Part shown: piece by piece, positions 9,818 to 36,787 of the stretch
How positions within the stretch are numbered: position 1 is the first letter of the stretch
How the letters are laid out: every line of letters starts with the position of its first letter
Source of the DNA: Candidatus Dormiibacterota bacterium
GTDB taxonomy: Bacteria; Chloroflexota; Dormibacteria; Dormibacterales; Dormibacteraceae
Reading direction: 5' to 3'
NCBI GenBank assembly: GCA_036570145.1
Contig: DATCPJ010000013.1
Span: 1 to 37,545, forward strand
Length of the DNA: 37,545 nucleotides
Program-made: the position numbers and the translations under genes
Notes under the pieces: generated by a model
What the model was told of the DNA's origin: nothing
Seen by the model: the letters and a program-made list of their open reading frames with translations, nothing else
Databases searched by the model: none

Positions 9818-9850
9818 TTCGATAACCCAGAAAACTTCCACCATGTACCG

Positions 9851-9882
9851 GGGTCGCGCCGAAAGGCGCGGCCCTTTCTTTT
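9851..9882 (+). terminator. intrinsic terminator
   Basis: GGGTCGCGCC (9851-9860), a GAAA tetraloop, then GGCGCGGCCC (9865-9874). This is a 10-bp stem with one G-U pair, followed by TTTCTTTT. Confidence 0.8.
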
Positions 9883-9913
9883 GCCGCGGCCGCCGGGGCA
9901 CACTTCACGTCTC

Positions 9914-10534
9914 GTGAGCTCACTCTTCCTCGCCTTCATCGCCATCTCCCTGCTCCTGGCGGTCACGCCGGGGCCTGACATGGCGCTGGTCACCAGGAAC
10001 GCCCTCGCCCACGGTCCAAAGGGCGTCTTCCTGACCACTACCGGGATCGCGATCGCACTCCTGCTCTGGGTCACCGCCACGGCGGTGGGTGTCGCCGCGG
10101 TTCTGAAGGCCTCGACAACCCTCTTCCACGCTTTGAAGCTGGTCGGGGGCGCCTACCTCGCCTACCTGGGGATCCGGGCGTGGCTCGCCAGCCGGGAGAA
10201 GCCCGGCGACCTACTGGCCGGGATGAAGGCCGCGCCGGCGGGCTCGATCCTCCGCCAGGGCCTGATCAGCGCGGGTACCAACCCCAAGCTGGGCGTGCTC
10301 TTCGTGACTCTGCTGCCGCAATTCATCGAACCCCACCGCCCGCTCCCGCCCCAGCTGCTGGTGCTCGGCGCGACGTTCGCCGTGATCGGCTGGACGTGGA
10401 TGAACGTCTACGGCCTGCTGATCGCCCGGATCCGCGACTTCATCACCGCTCCGCGGGTCCGGCAATGGATGGAACGGATCACCGGAACAGTGCTCATCGG
10501 CCTCGGCGTCCGGCTGGCCTTCGACCGAGCCTAG
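9914..10534 (+). CDS. LysE/RhtB-family amino-acid exporter
   Basis: The LysE N-terminal signature is FLAFIAISLLLAVTPGPD, and the protein has about 6 TM segments. I chose GTG at 9914 because the upstream TTG at 9881 lies inside the terminator T-tract. Confidence 0.8.
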   Translation: MSSLFLAFIAISLLLAVTPGPDMALVTRNALAHGPKGVFLTTTGIAIALLLWVTATAVGVAAVLKASTTLFHALKLVGGAYLAYLGIRAWLASREKPGDLLAGMKAAPAGSILRQGLISAGTNPKLGVLFVTLLPQFIEPHRPLPPQLLVLGATFAVIGWTWMNVYGLLIARIRDFITAPRVRQWMERITGTVLIGLGVRLAFDRA

Positions 10535-10586: not shown

Positions 10587-10697
10587 GACGCGGCGCGCAG
10601 GCCGGGTTTGTCCCCGGCCGAATGAGTGTTTCAATCGAAACCAGAGCCTGGCGCCGAGTGGGGGGTTTCTGGAAAGGGGGCCTGCCCCCCTTTGCCC
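10587..10697 (+). repeat. intergenic two-hairpin repeat, family A, copy 1
   Basis: It aligns with 34937-35043 and 36219-36320. Shared blocks are GACGCG, GGCCGGGTTT.TCCCGGCC, TGAGT.GT...AATCG, GCGCCGAG.GGGGG and TTCTGGAAAGGGGGCCTGCCCCCCTTTGCCC. It ends 2 nt before the stop codon of the minus-strand CDF gene. Confidence 0.75.
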
Positions 10698-10699
10698 CT

Positions 10700-12076
10700 T
10701 TAGCCCCGCGCCGTCGCCCGGGTCACGACCTCCTGCAGCTCGGGCTCGGCGAGGAGGATCTTGCGCTCCAGCTCGTCTTCGACGTGGTGTGCCTGCTCGA
10801 GCGAGACCTCCGGCGCCATCTCGACCACCACGTGGGCGGTGATCCGGCCGTGGCGTGAGCTGAGCTCCACGTCCCGGCAGCGGACGACCCCCGGCTCCTG
10901 GGCGACGATCTGCCGCACCCGATTGGCAAGCTCGATCTGGCTGGCGGTCACGTCGCGACCGGCGACGACGTCCGGCTCGAGGGGCTCGAGGTGGATGTCG
11001 ACGCGGCTCGCCTCGGGCAGCTCCTCGCGCAGCTCGGCCTCCAGCTCGGAGGAGAGCTCCTCCGCCTCCTCCAGCTGCATCTGGCTGGGGAGCTTGGCGT
11101 GCAGCGTCAGGTGGAACGACCCGTCGCGCTCCTGCTCGATGGTCACGTTGTGGATGTCCCGAAAGGCGCCCAGCCGGTTGGCGGCGGCGTGGACCCGCTC
11201 CACCAGGTTCGCCTGCTCCAGCTGGCCCTCCACGACCAGCACCAGGTCGACATCCGGCAGCCGCCGCGCCACCGCCTCCTCGACCTGCTTCGTCAGCGCC
11301 TGCGCGCCCTCCACCGAGAGGGTTCGGCGGGTTGCCACCCGAGCATCGCCGAGCAGGCGCCCGCCCGATCGCCTGACCCTCACCGCCCTCACCTCGCGGA
11401 TGCCCTTCACGGCCGCGATCGCCGCTCGCAGCCCGGCCTCGGCGCCGGCGGGGGCGCGGTCCATCAGCTCGTCCCCCGCGTGGCGGAGGATCTGGACGGC
11501 CGTCACCGCGATCAGGCCCGATACCAGGAGCGCCGCGACCGAGTCGGCCCACGGGTAGCCGTAACGGACCCCGATCAGCCCGGCCAGGACGCCGATCGAG
11601 GAAAGCACGTCGGCGACACGGTTCTGGGCGTCGGCCGTGAGGGCATCGCTGCCGGCCGCCCTTCCCGCCCAGCGCAGCACCACCGCCCGTCCCCCCTCGA
11701 TCAGCATCGCGGCGACGATCACGGCCAGCGCGTAATCCGTGGCGGAGACACCGCCGGCGTGGCCTCCCAGCCGCCGGACCGCCTCCAACGCGATGCCGCC
11801 GGCGGTCAGGAGGAGGAGGATCCCCTCCGTGTAGGCGGCCAGGTTCTCGACCCGGCCGTGGCCATAGAGGTGGTCGGCATCGGCGGGGCGCCGGGCGGTG
11901 GTGACGGCGACCAGGGCAAAGCCGGAGGCGACCACGTCGAGCCCGGAATGGGCGGCTTCGCTGATGATCCCGAGGCTCCCGGTGAGCAGGCCGACGACGA
12001 GCTTGGCGACGCAGATCACCGCTCCGATGAGCAGTGACCCGAGCGCGACCTGTTGAGCTCGTCGAGTGGAATCCAT
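10700..12076 (-). CDS. cation diffusion facilitator (CDF) transporter with an extended, apparently triplicated cytoplasmic tail
   Basis: 458 aa. The CDF TM core carries AAHSGLD and HLYGHGRVE. It is followed by about 250 aa that read as three successive CTD-like alpha-beta modules. Confidence 0.85.
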   Translation of the reverse strand: MDSTRRAQQVALGSLLIGAVICVAKLVVGLLTGSLGIISEAAHSGLDVVASGFALVAVTTARRPADADHLYGHGRVENLAAYTEGILLLLTAGGIALEAVRRLGGHAGGVSATDYALAVIVAAMLIEGGRAVVLRWAGRAAGSDALTADAQNRVADVLSSIGVLAGLIGVRYGYPWADSVAALLVSGLIAVTAVQILRHAGDELMDRAPAGAEAGLRAAIAAVKGIREVRAVRVRRSGGRLLGDARVATRRTLSVEGAQALTKQVEEAVARRLPDVDLVLVVEGQLEQANLVERVHAAANRLGAFRDIHNVTIEQERDGSFHLTLHAKLPSQMQLEEAEELSSELEAELREELPEASRVDIHLEPLEPDVVAGRDVTASQIELANRVRQIVAQEPGVVRCRDVELSSRHGRITAHVVVEMAPEVSLEQAHHVEDELERKILLAEPELQEVVTRATARG

Positions 12077-22612: not shown

Positions 22613-22706
22613 CGACTGGAAAGTCTAGGTTTAACACTTGGAAGGCCGTCCGCGCTCGCGTTAACGGGTGGCGTGGTCAGTCGGCTGGTCGTGCCGGAAT
22701 CGCCCG

Positions 22707-22911
22707 CCGATTCAACACAAAGTCACGAAGGCCACCAAGACGCACAAAGAAACGGGGTGGGGAAATGACAGCTTCGAACGCCGGCTGCCACGGCCAGGGC
22801 TGACGCGCTCTGCGGCGGCTCAAGAAAACGGCCTCCAGGGAATGGGTTAACGACTAATTCCTTTCCTTCGTGCGTCTTGGTGGCCTTCGTGTTTTTGTGT
22901 TTTTCGGACCC
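22707..22911. repeat. long imperfect inverted repeat built from CAC[A/G]AAG heptads, family B, copy 1
   Basis: The left arm (22707-22755) pairs with the right arm (22860-22907), including a 23-nt perfect core CACGAAGGCCACCAAGACGCAC. Four heptads begin at 22716, 22724, 22733 and 22743. The centre is 104 nt. It is related to 28759-28925. Confidence 0.75.
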
Positions 22912-28758: not shown

Positions 28759-28925
28759 GGTAGATACTGGGTCCGATTCAACACAAAGACACAAAGTCCA
28801 CAAAGGACGCACAAAGGGACGGGATTAAGAACGGCCTCGACCGGCTCGTGAACGGCTAAGTTCGTCGTCGTCGTCCTCTAATTTTTCTTCTTCGTGCGTA
28901 CTTCGTGTTCTTCGTGTCTTTGTGT
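28759..28925. repeat. long imperfect inverted repeat built from CAC[A/G]AAG heptads, family B, copy 2
   Basis: The terminal 8-mers GGGTCCGA (28759-28766) and TCGGACCC (28918-28925) are perfect inverted copies. Left-arm CACAAAG heptads begin at 28772, 28780, 28789 and 28800. Right-arm CTTCGTG/CTTTGTG heptads begin at 28880, 28891, 28900 and 28908. The centre is about 70 nt. Confidence 0.75.
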
Positions 28926-28947
28926 TTTCGGACCCCTTTCCTTCGCC

Positions 28948-34936: not shown

Positions 34937-35043
34937 GACGCGTAGACCGGGTTTAACCCGGCCGATTGAGTTGTTTTGAATCGACGGAATGCGTCGCGCC
35001 GAGAGGGGGGATTTTGGAAAGGGGGGCCTGCCCCCCTTTGCCC
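34937..35043 (+). repeat. intergenic two-hairpin repeat, family A, copy 2
   Basis: It has the same blocks as copies 1 and 3. Hairpin 1 is GACCGGG/CCCGGCC (34945-34963). Hairpin 2 is AAAGGGGGG-CCTG-CCCCCCTTT (35018-35039). Confidence 0.75.
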
Positions 35044-35051
35044 GTACTACG

Positions 35052-35561
35052 ATGCCGCGGATGGCTGACGAGGGTCTGTCGATCGCTCGCTACTACAAGG
35101 GCTGGGACGCCTACCAGCGGCAGCTGGTGACCGCGTTCACGCCCCTCGAGAGCGCCCACCTCAAGCTCCAGGCGGCGCCGACCCTGTGGTCGATCGGGAT
35201 GCTCGGCAACCACATCGTCGCCACTCGCGCCTGGTGGTTTCACTTTTGGATGAAGGAGGGTGGCGACGAGCTCGCCGACTTTGCCGAGTGGGATGAGGGC
35301 GAAGCGATGGCCGAGCGCTCCGCAGCCGAGATCGTCCGCGGCCTCGAGGCCACCTGGGGCCTGATCGCCTCGCGGCTCTCCGCCTGGACCGCGGCCGACC
35401 TCGCCAAGCAGTTCCAACGACCGGTCCCGAACGACGCCGGCAAGCGGCCGAAGCGGTCGCGGCAGTGGATCATCTGGCACGTGCTCGAGCACGACCTCCA
35501 CCATGGTGGCGAGGTCTCCTTCAGCCTAGGCATGCACGGCCTCGCCGGGATCGACCTCTAG
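35052..35561 (+). CDS. DinB-fold protein (DinB_2/DUF664-like)
   Basis: The four-helix DinB pattern ends in IIWHVLEHDLHHGGEV. I chose the start at ATG 35052 (alternative 35061) because the upstream part of ORF 34989.. is repeat sequence (GDFGKGGLPPFA). Confidence 0.7.
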   Translation: MPRMADEGLSIARYYKGWDAYQRQLVTAFTPLESAHLKLQAAPTLWSIGMLGNHIVATRAWWFHFWMKEGGDELADFAEWDEGEAMAERSAAEIVRGLEATWGLIASRLSAWTAADLAKQFQRPVPNDAGKRPKRSRQWIIWHVLEHDLHHGGEVSFSLGMHGLAGIDL

Positions 35562-35562
35562 C

Positions 35563-35585
35563 GGCGCCGCGAGCGGCGCCTTCTG
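35563..35585 (+). terminator. hairpin after the DinB gene (weak terminator candidate)
   Basis: GGCGCCG (35563-35569), a CGAG loop, CGGCGCC (35574-35580), then TTCTG. The U-tract is poor. Confidence 0.35.
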
Positions 35586-35752
35586 CGACCACGTCACGAC
35601 TAGCGACTTCCGGTTTCATCGCTGAACGCCCCTCCCCTCCTGGCCTGGCGGCGAGGAGGACCTCCCCATGAATGGGGAGGCAAGACTTGCCGACTCGGGT
35701 GGTTTATCGCGGAACGGACATCCCACGCGGGAGGCAGGACCGGGCCGTGTGG

Positions 35753-36218: not shown

Positions 36219-36320
36219 GACGCGTAGGCCGGGTTTATCCCGGCCGTTTGAGTTGTCGTGAATCGCCGACCAGTGTGGCGCGGAGGGGGGAGTTCTGGAA
36301 GAGGGGGCCTGCCCCCTCTT
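36219..36320 (+). repeat. intergenic two-hairpin repeat, family A, copy 3
   Basis: Hairpin 1 is GGCCGGG-TTTAT-CCCGGCC (36227-36245). Hairpin 2 is AAGAGGGGG-CCTG-CCCCCTCTT (36299-36320). It ends 2 nt before the greA stop codon. Confidence 0.75.
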
Positions 36321-36322
36321 GC

Positions 36323-36787
36323 TCATTTCACCGACTTGATGGTCAGGTGGAGGGTGCCCTGGGGCACGTTCACGGTTACCTTGTCGCCCTTCTTCTTGCC
36401 CACGATCGCGCGCCCGACCGGCGAGTCCACCGAGATGCGACCCTCGCCGGGATCGCTCTCCACCGCGCCGACCAGGTGGTAGGTCTCGCTGTGCCCGTCC
36501 TCGTCGAGCACCTCGACGGTGGACCCCGGCTCGGCGATATTCGAGTGGTGCTCGTGGATGATCTCGGCGCGGCCGATCATCTCCTCCAGCTCGTAGATGC
36601 GGCCATCGATCAGGCCGACCTCTTCCTTGGCCTGCTCGTACTCCGGGTTGTCCTCGATGTCGCCCGGCTGGAACGCTTCCTTGAGCCGGTCGGCCGCCTC
36701 CACGCGGCGGGCGCGCTGAACCTCGAGCTCGGCTTTGAGCCGCTCGAGCCCCTCGGGAGTCAGAAGTACGGGTTCGGTCAGGTCCAT
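36323..36787 (-). CDS. greA: transcription elongation factor GreA
   Basis: This is the C-terminal 154 codons of ORF 36323..37147, from the ATG at 36785-36787. It has the GreA coiled-coil N-terminus (LTPEGLERLKAELE...DNPEYEQAKEE) and the C-terminal motif ISVDSPVGRAIVGKKKGDKV. Confidence 0.9.
   Translation of the reverse strand: MDLTEPVLLTPEGLERLKAELEVQRARRVEAADRLKEAFQPGDIEDNPEYEQAKEEVGLIDGRIYELEEMIGRAEIIHEHHSNIAEPGSTVEVLDEDGHSETYHLVGAVESDPGEGRISVDSPVGRAIVGKKKGDKVTVNVPQGTLHLTIKSVK

Follow-up and report, generated by a model that had tools for sequence, protein, structure and literature searches.

The family A repeat, a modular unit of about 115 nt present in three full copies in the window (the whole 37,545-nt stretch of DNA analysed here), is probably a mobile, non-coding, non-autonomous mosaic repeat of the REP/BIME kind, in which a stop-proximal hairpin would act on the 3' end of the mRNA. 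REPs are repetitive extragenic palindromes, and BIMEs are the mosaic clusters that they form. The family is real, widespread, multi-copy and intergenic, it belongs to Candidatus Dormibacterota, and it is apparently previously undescribed. No description of such repeats in Dormibacterota was found in a full-text literature search, and Rfam gave no match at gathering score for the whole window and chance-level matches only, at E-values up to 10, around copy 1, in agreement with the original prediction, made from the letters alone, that the repeat corresponded to no described motif.

Window copies and anatomy of the unit

The three window copies all lie on the plus strand and contain all of the described blocks, as had been predicted, in the order GACGCG or GGCGCG, hairpin 1, TGAGT..AATCG, GCGCCGAG followed by a G-run, and hairpin 2 (Table 1). 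A covariance model applied to every position of the window recovered only these three full copies (110-121 bits), the exact 14-mer of the hairpin-2 core (GGGGGCCTGCCCCC) occurs in the window only at the three copies, and a family reported by the repeat finder (D3) consists of the same three sites. A 28-nt consensus of the 5' part, allowing at most 3 mismatches, matched 2 window sites against 0.00 expected in shuffled sequences, and a chance origin of the copies is therefore excluded.

Table 1. Family A copies, their hairpins and the neighbours of copy 1, in window coordinates
Feature	Start	End	Strand	Description
Copy 1	10586	10699	+	Covariance model 110 bits; span originally predicted 10587-10697
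Copy 1 neighbours				Upstream, a LysE-family gene on the plus strand that ends at 10534; downstream, a cation-efflux gene on the minus strand with its stop codon at 10700-10702
Copy 1 hairpin 1	10600	10619	+	GGCCGGG-TTTGTC-CCCGGCC; preceded by GCAG, a degenerate GTAG tag
Copy 1 hairpin 2	10671	10696	+	GGAAAGGGGG-CCTG-CCCCCCTTTGCC; ends 3 nt short of the reverse-strand stop codon of the cation-efflux gene
Copy 2	34931	35045	+	Covariance model 121 bits; span originally predicted 34937-35043
Copy 2 GTAG tag and hairpin 1	34942	34963	+	GTAG/GACCGGG-TTTAA-CCCGGCC; one A.C mismatch
Copy 2 hairpin 2	35016	35042	+	GGAAAGGGGGG-CCTG-CCCCCCTTTGCC
Copy 3	36213	36322	+	Covariance model 118 bits; span originally predicted 36219-36320
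Copy 3 GTAG tag and hairpin 1	36224	36245	+	GGCCGGG-TTTAT-CCCGGCC, then T-rich GTTTGAGTTG
Copy 3 hairpin 2	36297	36322	+	Second stem version, GGAAGAGGGGG-CCTG-CCCCCTCTTGC; directly abuts the greA stop codon

The predicted ends of copies 1 and 3 (10697 and 36320) do lie 2 nt before the stop codon of a minus-strand gene, and both genes were confirmed by Pfam (Cation_efflux, 10700-12076; GreA/GreB, gene end at 36323; both on the minus strand). Copy 3 lies in the spacer bounded by the greA stop codon (36323-36325) and by the start (36130) of the next minus-strand gene, and is antisense to both flanking genes, since both are on the minus strand. The placement of copy 2 is atypical, with no abutting gene stop and only a reverse-strand TAG triplet at 35047-35049; its hairpin-2 end lies 6 nt upstream of the ATG of a dinB-family gene, which most likely starts at 35052 on the plus strand. 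Copy 1 has an orthologue at the same site in contig DATCOZ010000299.1 (L004, 2372-2486; 94.8% identical) and copy 3 has one in L008 (2548-2663), while in a third strain (L033) only a degraded remnant is found at the greA site. Both predicted hairpins are present in all copies, with deviations from the predicted form in copy 2 (an A.C mismatch in hairpin 1) and in copy 1 (a hairpin-1 loop of 6 nt, and a hairpin-2 stem with 5 G opposite 6 C). The predicted span of about 105-110 nt was slightly short, the conserved unit being about 115 nt and starting 9-11 nt upstream of GTAG.

The boundaries of the unit were drawn from stacks of distinct ends, 51 for the 5' side and 49 for the 3' side, and the conservation begins with GCGTGGCGC-GTAGG and stops 1-4 nt past TTGCC; a long subfamily, to which copy 1 belongs, has about 25 nt extra upstream (GGAAACGCCCCCGACCC). 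The 5' part consists of GTAG, hairpin 1 (GGCCGGG, a 5-nt loop and CCCGGCC), a T-rich unpaired block (GAWTGAGTTGTTTGAATCGA) and a variable stretch, and the 3' part of GCGCCGAG with a run of 5-6 G, TTCTGGAA and hairpin 2, which has the general form (A/G)3G6-CCTG-C6(T/C)3. The unit is thus modular, with a GTAG-tagged 7-bp hairpin and a second hairpin on either side of a conserved unpaired stretch (TGAGTTGT..AATCGA..GCGCCGAG and the G-run). GTAG followed by the 7-bp stem was found in 50 of 51 distinct terminal 5' ends, a count that is biased upward as most loci were fetched by a pattern containing GTAG, and the tag is also carried by tandem partners that had not been selected in this way; the variants seen were GCAG, CAAG, TTAG and GGAG. 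Some loci have the hairpin-1 module joined to a different 3' module, and others have an extra hairpin nested within the loop of hairpin 2, so that the family is a mosaic.

Position profiles and flank listings gave no terminal inverted repeats (neither end, GCGTGGCGCGTAGG or ..TTTGCCCGT, is an inverted repeat of the other), as the original prediction had it, and no consistent target duplication or conserved di- or trinucleotide in the 5' flank was found across the copies; a possible TA/TAG duplication is seen at copies 1 and 2 only and is not general. A separate family with true inverted repeats, of the type represented by ERIC/IRU, is also present in the window, at 22705-22905 and 28773-28934.

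Covariation in hairpin 2 and distribution of the family

Hairpin 2, a stable 9-bp stem (about -18 kcal/mol), is under constraint. Structure conservation was scored on 67 distinct copies in an alignment fitted to the model, with the raw hairpins listed as a cross-check. Hairpin 2 was paired in 96.5% of cells with changes on both sides at 10 of 11 pairs, values that were reached by none of 500 shuffles, and when the partner was slid by 1-3 columns the pairing fell to 47-65%. In the raw sequences, at least five distinct stem versions were seen (AAAGGGGGG/CCCCCCTTT, AAGAGGGGG/CCCCCTCTT, AAGGGGGGA/TCCCCCCTT, AAGGGGGGAC/GTCCCCCCTT and AAGGGGGAG/CTCCCCCTT), all of which fold. Read on the plus strand, the hairpin-2 pairs comprised 607 Watson-Crick, 7 G.U and 0 A.C pairs. 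A hairpin paired almost entirely by Watson-Crick pairs suits a constraint at the DNA level or on two strands, and the restriction of G.U pairs to the plus orientation speaks weakly against selection having acted on the gene-sense RNA; 7 cases against 0, not independent of each other, are too few and too thin a basis to assign an RNA strand.

Hairpin 1 (7-bp stem GGCCGGG/CCCGGCC, loop of 5-6 nt) was paired in 99% of cells in the same 67 copies, a near-invariance that is uninformative either way because the search patterns partly forced this hairpin. The remaining predicted helices varied on one side only, with no compensatory change in the outer helices, and the folding z-scores of single copies were -1.5 to -2.7. 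A helix enclosing hairpin 1 (GGCGCG/CGCGCC) was considered and rejected, RNAalifold predicting none and the variants examined not being compensatory.

Among species-representative genomes, a pattern comprising both hairpins gave 10 further copies in two metagenome-assembled genomes (MAGs), Candidatus Dormibacterota SMAG_U7214 (DATCOZ01) and one labelled Chloroflexi bacterium CF_105 (VBHN01); one fragmented MAG alone had 8 strict-pattern matches, and the 37.5-kb window holds 3 copies. The strain from which the window derives is a close relative of MAG DATCOZ01, since the window is 92-95% identical to DATCOZ010000299.1 over 12 kb. A pattern made up of GTAG, hairpin 1 and TGAG matched 61 soil-metagenome contigs, and over the two MAGs and these 61 contigs the family HMM found 120 copies (96 non-redundant), including copies selected by neither pattern. 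Viral contigs gave no match to the hairpin-1 pattern. In the soil metagenomes holding the window, the depth of the element in assembled contigs was about 20-45 times that of neighbouring single-copy DNA, which points to tens of copies per genome equivalent. The original prediction had proposed that a covariance model be built and that the orientation of copies relative to flanking genes be recorded; the pattern and model searches led to further copies outside the window and in relatives, and the orientation turned out to be set by the abutting gene, and not to be random. Since orientation follows the abutting gene, no separate meaning attaches to the fact that the three window copies are all on the plus strand.

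Placement behind stop codons and differences between strains

Units of the family are retained almost only downstream of genes. Placement was tested on non-redundant copies, excluding those located before another copy or a contig end, and a converging gene was defined as an ORF of at least 40 codons, with a GC3 of at least 0.72, converging on the hairpin-2 end. For 36 of 52 terminal copies, a converging stop codon lay within 12 nt of the hairpin-2 end, in the range from -1 to +10 nt and mostly at 1-6 nt, and the same test at the hairpin-1 end gave 7 of 53. The abutting stop codons were TAA (18), TGA (11) and TAG (7). Clusters with genes called on both sides were in unidirectional (24) or convergent (15) contexts and never in divergent ones (0), and convergent gene pairs often had two inverted units, one for each gene (L053, L007 and L002). 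About 15-30% of copies, copy 2 included, break the placement rule. The strand relevant to the genes is the complement of the one originally read, since hairpin 2 follows the stop codon of the converging gene; in gene sense, the order is the stop codon, 1-6 nt, GGCAAAGGGGGG-CAGG-CCCCCCUUUCC, a C-rich tract and finally the GTAG hairpin.

The genes that abut copies are functionally unrelated (cation efflux, greA, dinB-family, transporters, dehydrogenases), and the 25 commonest Pfam families listed for 136 flanking proteins are housekeeping and metabolic families of an ordinary kind, unrelated to one another. The distance from the unit to the start of the next gene is 10-30 nt in several operon contexts. 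The tight spacing to the stop codon is no general habit of these genomes, since their clear canonical terminators are located 20-35 nt past stop codons and have long T tails; these terminators were the only usable comparison for genes lacking the element, RNAfold being noisy on DNA this rich in G+C.

Within the time of strain divergence, units have been gained, lost, inverted and tandemly amplified. In the window strain, a copy of the copy-2 lineage lies immediately upstream of dinB. In the related, 94% identical MAG (L008), this upstream site is empty (..TCGACTACGATG..) with the TAG triplet present, and a 94% identical copy is found inverted at 1966-2084, right after the dinB stop codon (TAG-TACGGGCAAAGG), compared to an identity of merely 75-88% between paralogous copies. 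In the third strain (L033), the same lineage occurs in tandem after the stop codon of a neighbouring gene of 125 aa. Clusters are arranged head-to-tail with a period of 111-123 nt and up to 5 units, and at their junctions a few bases from the flank of the gene, stop codon included, are found again. The number of tandem units was 2 and 3, respectively, in contigs with 99.7% identical flanks, a difference that could be a result of assembly collapse, and in L008 a 57-nt duplication covers the 3' half of a unit and the last codons of greA. Since the hairpins are palindromes, recombination between them could invert the intervening DNA. Between orthologues, the element was 94.8% identical, coding DNA 94.2% and other intergenic DNA 91.6%, differences too small, and from too few sites, to show selection.

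The main alternative to a REP/BIME-kind repeat acting on mRNA 3' ends is a transposon-like, single-strand target choice, according to which the units would be miniature derivatives of an IS200/IS605-type or other sequence-targeted transposon and would lie next to stop codons because TAA, TGA or TAG is the target, irrespective of function. This we regard as unlikely. Two different subterminal hairpins, with neither terminal inverted repeats nor a regular duplication, are what is seen at IS200/IS605 ends and fit PATE-type elements of that group, but the hairpin-2 flank, a stop-like triplet plus 0-3 nt, differs from the fixed tetranucleotide target of IS200/IS605-derived elements. The junction becomes very tight, 0-3 nt past the stop codon, if the unit is taken to start at A(C/A)GGGCAA; copy 2 and L005 directly follow a non-stop TAG, the empty L008 site has the same TAG, and a stop-like triplet is found within 6 nt for 9 of the 16 copies for which no converging gene was called. 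A 3-nt target nevertheless occurs far too often, in spacers and out of frame, to account for 69% of copies being at true stop codons; the length of the spacer is variable, and in 338 kb of element-bearing DNA no transposase and no longer element with both ends was seen. The covariation of hairpin 2 does not decide between function and transposition, because the pairing could serve either transposition or RNA.

Relation to known repeats, possible function and significance

GTAG REPs are short stem-loops in which the stem has 6-13 bp and GTAG stands at one end, the tag that defines the largest REP superfamily; they have been reported from eight phyla, Chloroflexi among them, are found mostly between unidirectional and convergent ORFs, with fewer than 20 bp separating conv-REPs from the 3' ends of the ORFs on either side, and form subfamilies that differ through complementary stem changes and clusters in which units recur along with the DNA that flanks them (Di Nocera et al., PMC3733652). 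When set against E. coli REP, Pseudomonas REP/REPIN, Stenotrophomonas SMAG and Thermomicrobium roseum GTAG-23 (PMC3733652, PMC2817692), family A agrees with GTAG REPs (Di Nocera 2013; Nunvar 2010) in having GTAG directly before a 7-bp G+C stem-loop (hairpin 1), in being extragenic, multi-copy and located near the 3' ends of upstream genes, never in divergent contexts, and in having complementary-stem subfamilies, tandem clusters that carry flanking DNA, and variability between strains. The GTAG hairpin, the extragenic multi-copy state, the 3'-end placement, the tandem clusters and the strain differences bear out the REP-like character that had been proposed from the window alone. The first ten bases, GTAGGCCGG(G/A), also resemble the E. 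coli REP. Unlike REPs, the conserved unit is about 115 nt long with a second hairpin and long unpaired blocks, and not a palindrome of 20-40 nt, and it is the untagged hairpin, not the GTAG one, that abuts the stop codon. Units are arranged head-to-tail, whereas the REPs of a BIME alternate in orientation with conserved linker motifs, and REPIN-like doublets are absent except where two genes converge (L053, L007). Dormibacterota is not among the phyla from which GTAG REPs were reported. The copy number of REPs is usually above 100 per genome, and for family A the depth points to tens of copies per genome equivalent.

In the REP superfamily, a gene for RAYT, the REP-associated tyrosine transposase, is present in the same genome and flanked by REPs, the counterpart of which in family A would be flanked by inverted GTAGGCCGGG hairpins. 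A phmmer search with E. coli RayT (NC_000913.3) against six-frame ORFs of at least 60 aa gave no RAYT/Y1 transposase hit at E-values up to 10 in 338 kb of element-bearing DNA. By analogy with RAYT (Y1 transposase), the GTAG hairpin is the probable handle for a mobilising enzyme, and likely constitutes its recognition site.

Family A shares features with several other repeat systems. The transcribed, MITE-like 3'-UTR repeats ERIC/IRU of enterobacteria, Correia/NEMIS of Neisseria, and RUP and BOX of pneumococcus are likewise intergenic and variably present between strains, are 100-150 nt long and co-transcribed, and have hairpins that alter mRNA stability or termination; ERIC/IRU-type elements, however, have long terminal inverted repeats that form one long hairpin, and mostly a TA target duplication, neither of which is found in family A. 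A miniature inverted-repeat transposable element (MITE) was rejected on the same grounds, the family having no terminal inverted repeats and no regular target-site duplication. Integron attC sites (Vibrio cholerae repeats, about 120 nt) are similar in length, in their fixed orientation directly past the stop codon and in within-genome similarity, but in an attC site the R''/L''/L'/R' boxes and a GTTRRRY core belong to a single long imperfect palindrome, and such sites occur in same-direction cassette arrays near an integrase. This identity was rejected, as family A has two separate hairpins, the GTTRRRY core is absent (GAGTTGTTT does not fit), and the copies are scattered, in either orientation, after housekeeping genes and also between convergent genes. 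MIRUs (units of 40-100 nt) are also intergenic, often inside operons, head-to-tail and strain-variable in copy number. They carry short ORFs that run into the stop and start codons on either side, and are not known to have conserved G/C hairpins; in family A, by contrast, hairpins are present, and there is no consistent reading frame relative to the stop codon, since the spacer varies from 1 to 6 nt.

As in REPs, the stop-proximal hairpin most likely functions at the RNA level. Transcripts of the upstream gene would carry the complement of the unit as their 3' UTR, in which hairpin 2 would be a block to 3'-to-5' exonucleases, and so stabilise the upstream message, and would act as a partial terminator that sets the 3' end of the message with some read-through within operons. 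Termination would be only partial because hairpin 2 has a three-U tail (UUUCC or UUUGCC) and was flagged on neither strand by the consensus terminator scan, and strong termination is unlikely in operon contexts because the next gene starts only 10-30 nt past the unit. The earlier proposal of a REP-like or terminator-carrying repeat fits the evidence, its terminator part being qualified by this tail and by the negative scan of hairpin 2. The only part of the window copies that the scan flagged was hairpin 1 of copy 3, on the plus strand only. A terminating ribosome would cover the hairpin-2 stem, since this begins about 7-11 nt past the stop codon, and for stop-proximal REPs in E. coli lowered expression has been reported in this ribosome-covered arrangement. 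The evidence for transcription is thin and consists of metatranscriptome contigs that hold a related copy, which are assembled and unoriented and may contain DNA.

That the units are instead ordinary, non-mobile bidirectional intrinsic terminators, alike through gene conversion or convergence, is improbable. Hairpin 2 is symmetric (A-tract, G/C stem, T-tract), lies just past stop codons and is often between convergent genes, as such terminators are; hairpin 1 with its T-rich tail is terminator-like on the plus strand, and in L008 the 125-aa gene is followed by a lone terminator that resembles hairpin 2 and has a T5 tail. Hairpin 2 differs from intrinsic terminators, however, in having only three T, which belong to the stem, in being embedded in a 115-nt repeat, the long conserved unpaired blocks of which are unlike the native terminators of unrelated genes, and in being located 1-6 nt from the stop codon as opposed to about 20-35 nt. 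Neither the head-to-tail arrays of up to 5 units, nor the many copies inside apparent operons just ahead of the next start codon, nor a single copy lineage whose site and orientation change from one related strain to another would be expected of terminators. A structured non-coding RNA, whether a plus-strand sRNA gene family or a cis-regulatory leader (riboswitch or attenuator), is the least probable reading and the small structured RNA of the original prediction found no support, for although two hairpins are present, one with real covariation, although the few G.U pairs are on the plus strand, although there are conserved unpaired blocks and two G6 runs in competition for one C6 run, which would allow alternative pairings, and although copy 2 lies directly upstream of dinB, the Rfam searches were negative, the z-scores of single copies are modest, no promoter-like site accompanies the copies, hairpin 1 and the outer helices lack compensatory change, the position follows the stop codon of the upstream gene next to unrelated neighbours, and tandem arrays with presence/absence variation are typical of repeats and not of regulators.

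Family A belongs to the known REP/BIME kind and is not a new kind of RNA gene. Its stop-codon placement is unusually strict, and it represents no new class of biology unless a coupling to the stop codon proves mechanistic. A new mobile element or 3'-end module, the insertion or retention of which is mechanistically coupled to the stop codon, is a speculative reading to which we give little credence; if it were true, landing would occur 0-3 nt past TAA, TGA or TAG in one orientation, non-stop TAG included, the first hairpin would lie within the footprint of the terminating ribosome with the C-rich tract next to it, and dozens of unrelated genes would have a link between translation termination, the folding of the hairpin and possibly the loading of Rho.

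As a REP/BIME-kind repeat, the family adds Dormibacterota, an uncultured and little-studied soil phylum, to the lineages with GTAG-tagged REP-type repeats, and it represents a composite form, with the stop-proximal position occupied by a second hairpin that covaries. Contig breaks in Dormibacterota MAGs, and rearrangements there at the level of strains, are explained by the family, which also serves as a sequence marker for the Dormibacterota lineage. With one orientation rule, several stem versions, and both empty and filled sites, it also constitutes a test case for whether REP-like repeats are kept for a function at the 3' end of the mRNA or are merely tolerated there.

Rearrangement around Family A units

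Features found in and around the loci that carry Family A units (intergenic REP/BIME-like repeats of about 115 nt) are collected in the table below. The spacer between dinB and the gene for a 125-aa protein was polymorphic, with 26 nt standing in place of 208 nt in one metagenome contig and the spacer occupied instead by a Family A unit and a solo hairpin in a related, ~94% identical MAG (DATCOZ01; locus L008). Sequencing depth at window positions 35658-35731 was 5-13 times that of single-copy sequence, so this spacer contains a further repeat; two hairpins were found in it as well (GGCGCCGC-GAG-CGGCGCC and CCTCCCCAT-GAA-TGGGGAGG).

Features in the window and in related element-bearing loci
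Feature	Location	Details
Solo hairpin, hairpin-2-like	L008 2085-2113	Proper T5 tail (AAAGGGCGCCTGCCCCTTTTTG)
Repeat family unrelated to Family A	Window 22705-22905 and 28773-28934	~160-200 nt
Variant with GTAG-hairpin-1 module and different 3' half	L013 3200-3328, L025 233-361, L039 6860-6985, L019 818-943	..GGCTCCCAACCAAAAGGGAAAGGGGCCCATGGGGGAAACCGCAGGTTTCCCCC
Canonical intrinsic terminator	Window 9850-9885, + strand	GGGGTCGCGCCGAAAGGCGCGGCCCT + TTCTTTTGCC
Polymorphic spacer	Window 35543-35750	dinB stop to 125-aa gene stop
Tandem duplication in related MAG	L008 2667-2716	57 nt; orthologous to window about 36278-36331
Duplicated coding-sequence end	L002 5540-5574 and 5807-5840	~35 nt, including TAA

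Hairpin modules and terminators

A variant family, in which the GTAG-hairpin-1 module is joined to a different 3' half, occurred at four loci and was followed by the recurring motif AAAGTGACCCCGAC, which was present too after units in two other loci (L062 and L035). The solo hairpin of the related MAG lies 3 nt past the stop codon of the 125-aa gene, and may be either what is left of a hairpin-2 module or a terminator native to the site and akin to that module. Long U tails are in use by this organism, as seen from the canonical terminator in the window, which ends at the predicted start (9881) of the LysE-family gene. A copy related to the unit at window 36222-36322 was found in assembled soil metatranscriptome contigs (run X17), with unrelated flanks on both sides, hinting weakly at transcription running through the units, with DNA carry-over possible.

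A second repeat family with terminal inverted repeats

The second family looks like a classical MITE, its two copies sharing CACAAAG/CTTCGTG-rich terminal inverted repeats of 40-50 nt (GATTCAACACAAAG...CTTTGTGTT) around unrelated centres. Both copies are intergenic, one amid same-direction genes and the other amid convergent genes.

Duplications reaching gene ends

The tandem duplication in the related MAG comprises not only the 3' half of a Family A unit (GCGCGGAG to hairpin 2) but also the end of greA, with its last two codons and stop codon (TCATTTCAC). At another element-bearing locus (L002), the duplicated coding-sequence end lies on both sides of a block in which a single inverted unit and part of a hairpin-2 module are found, and rearrangements near units are thus able to copy gene ends, here including the stop codon.
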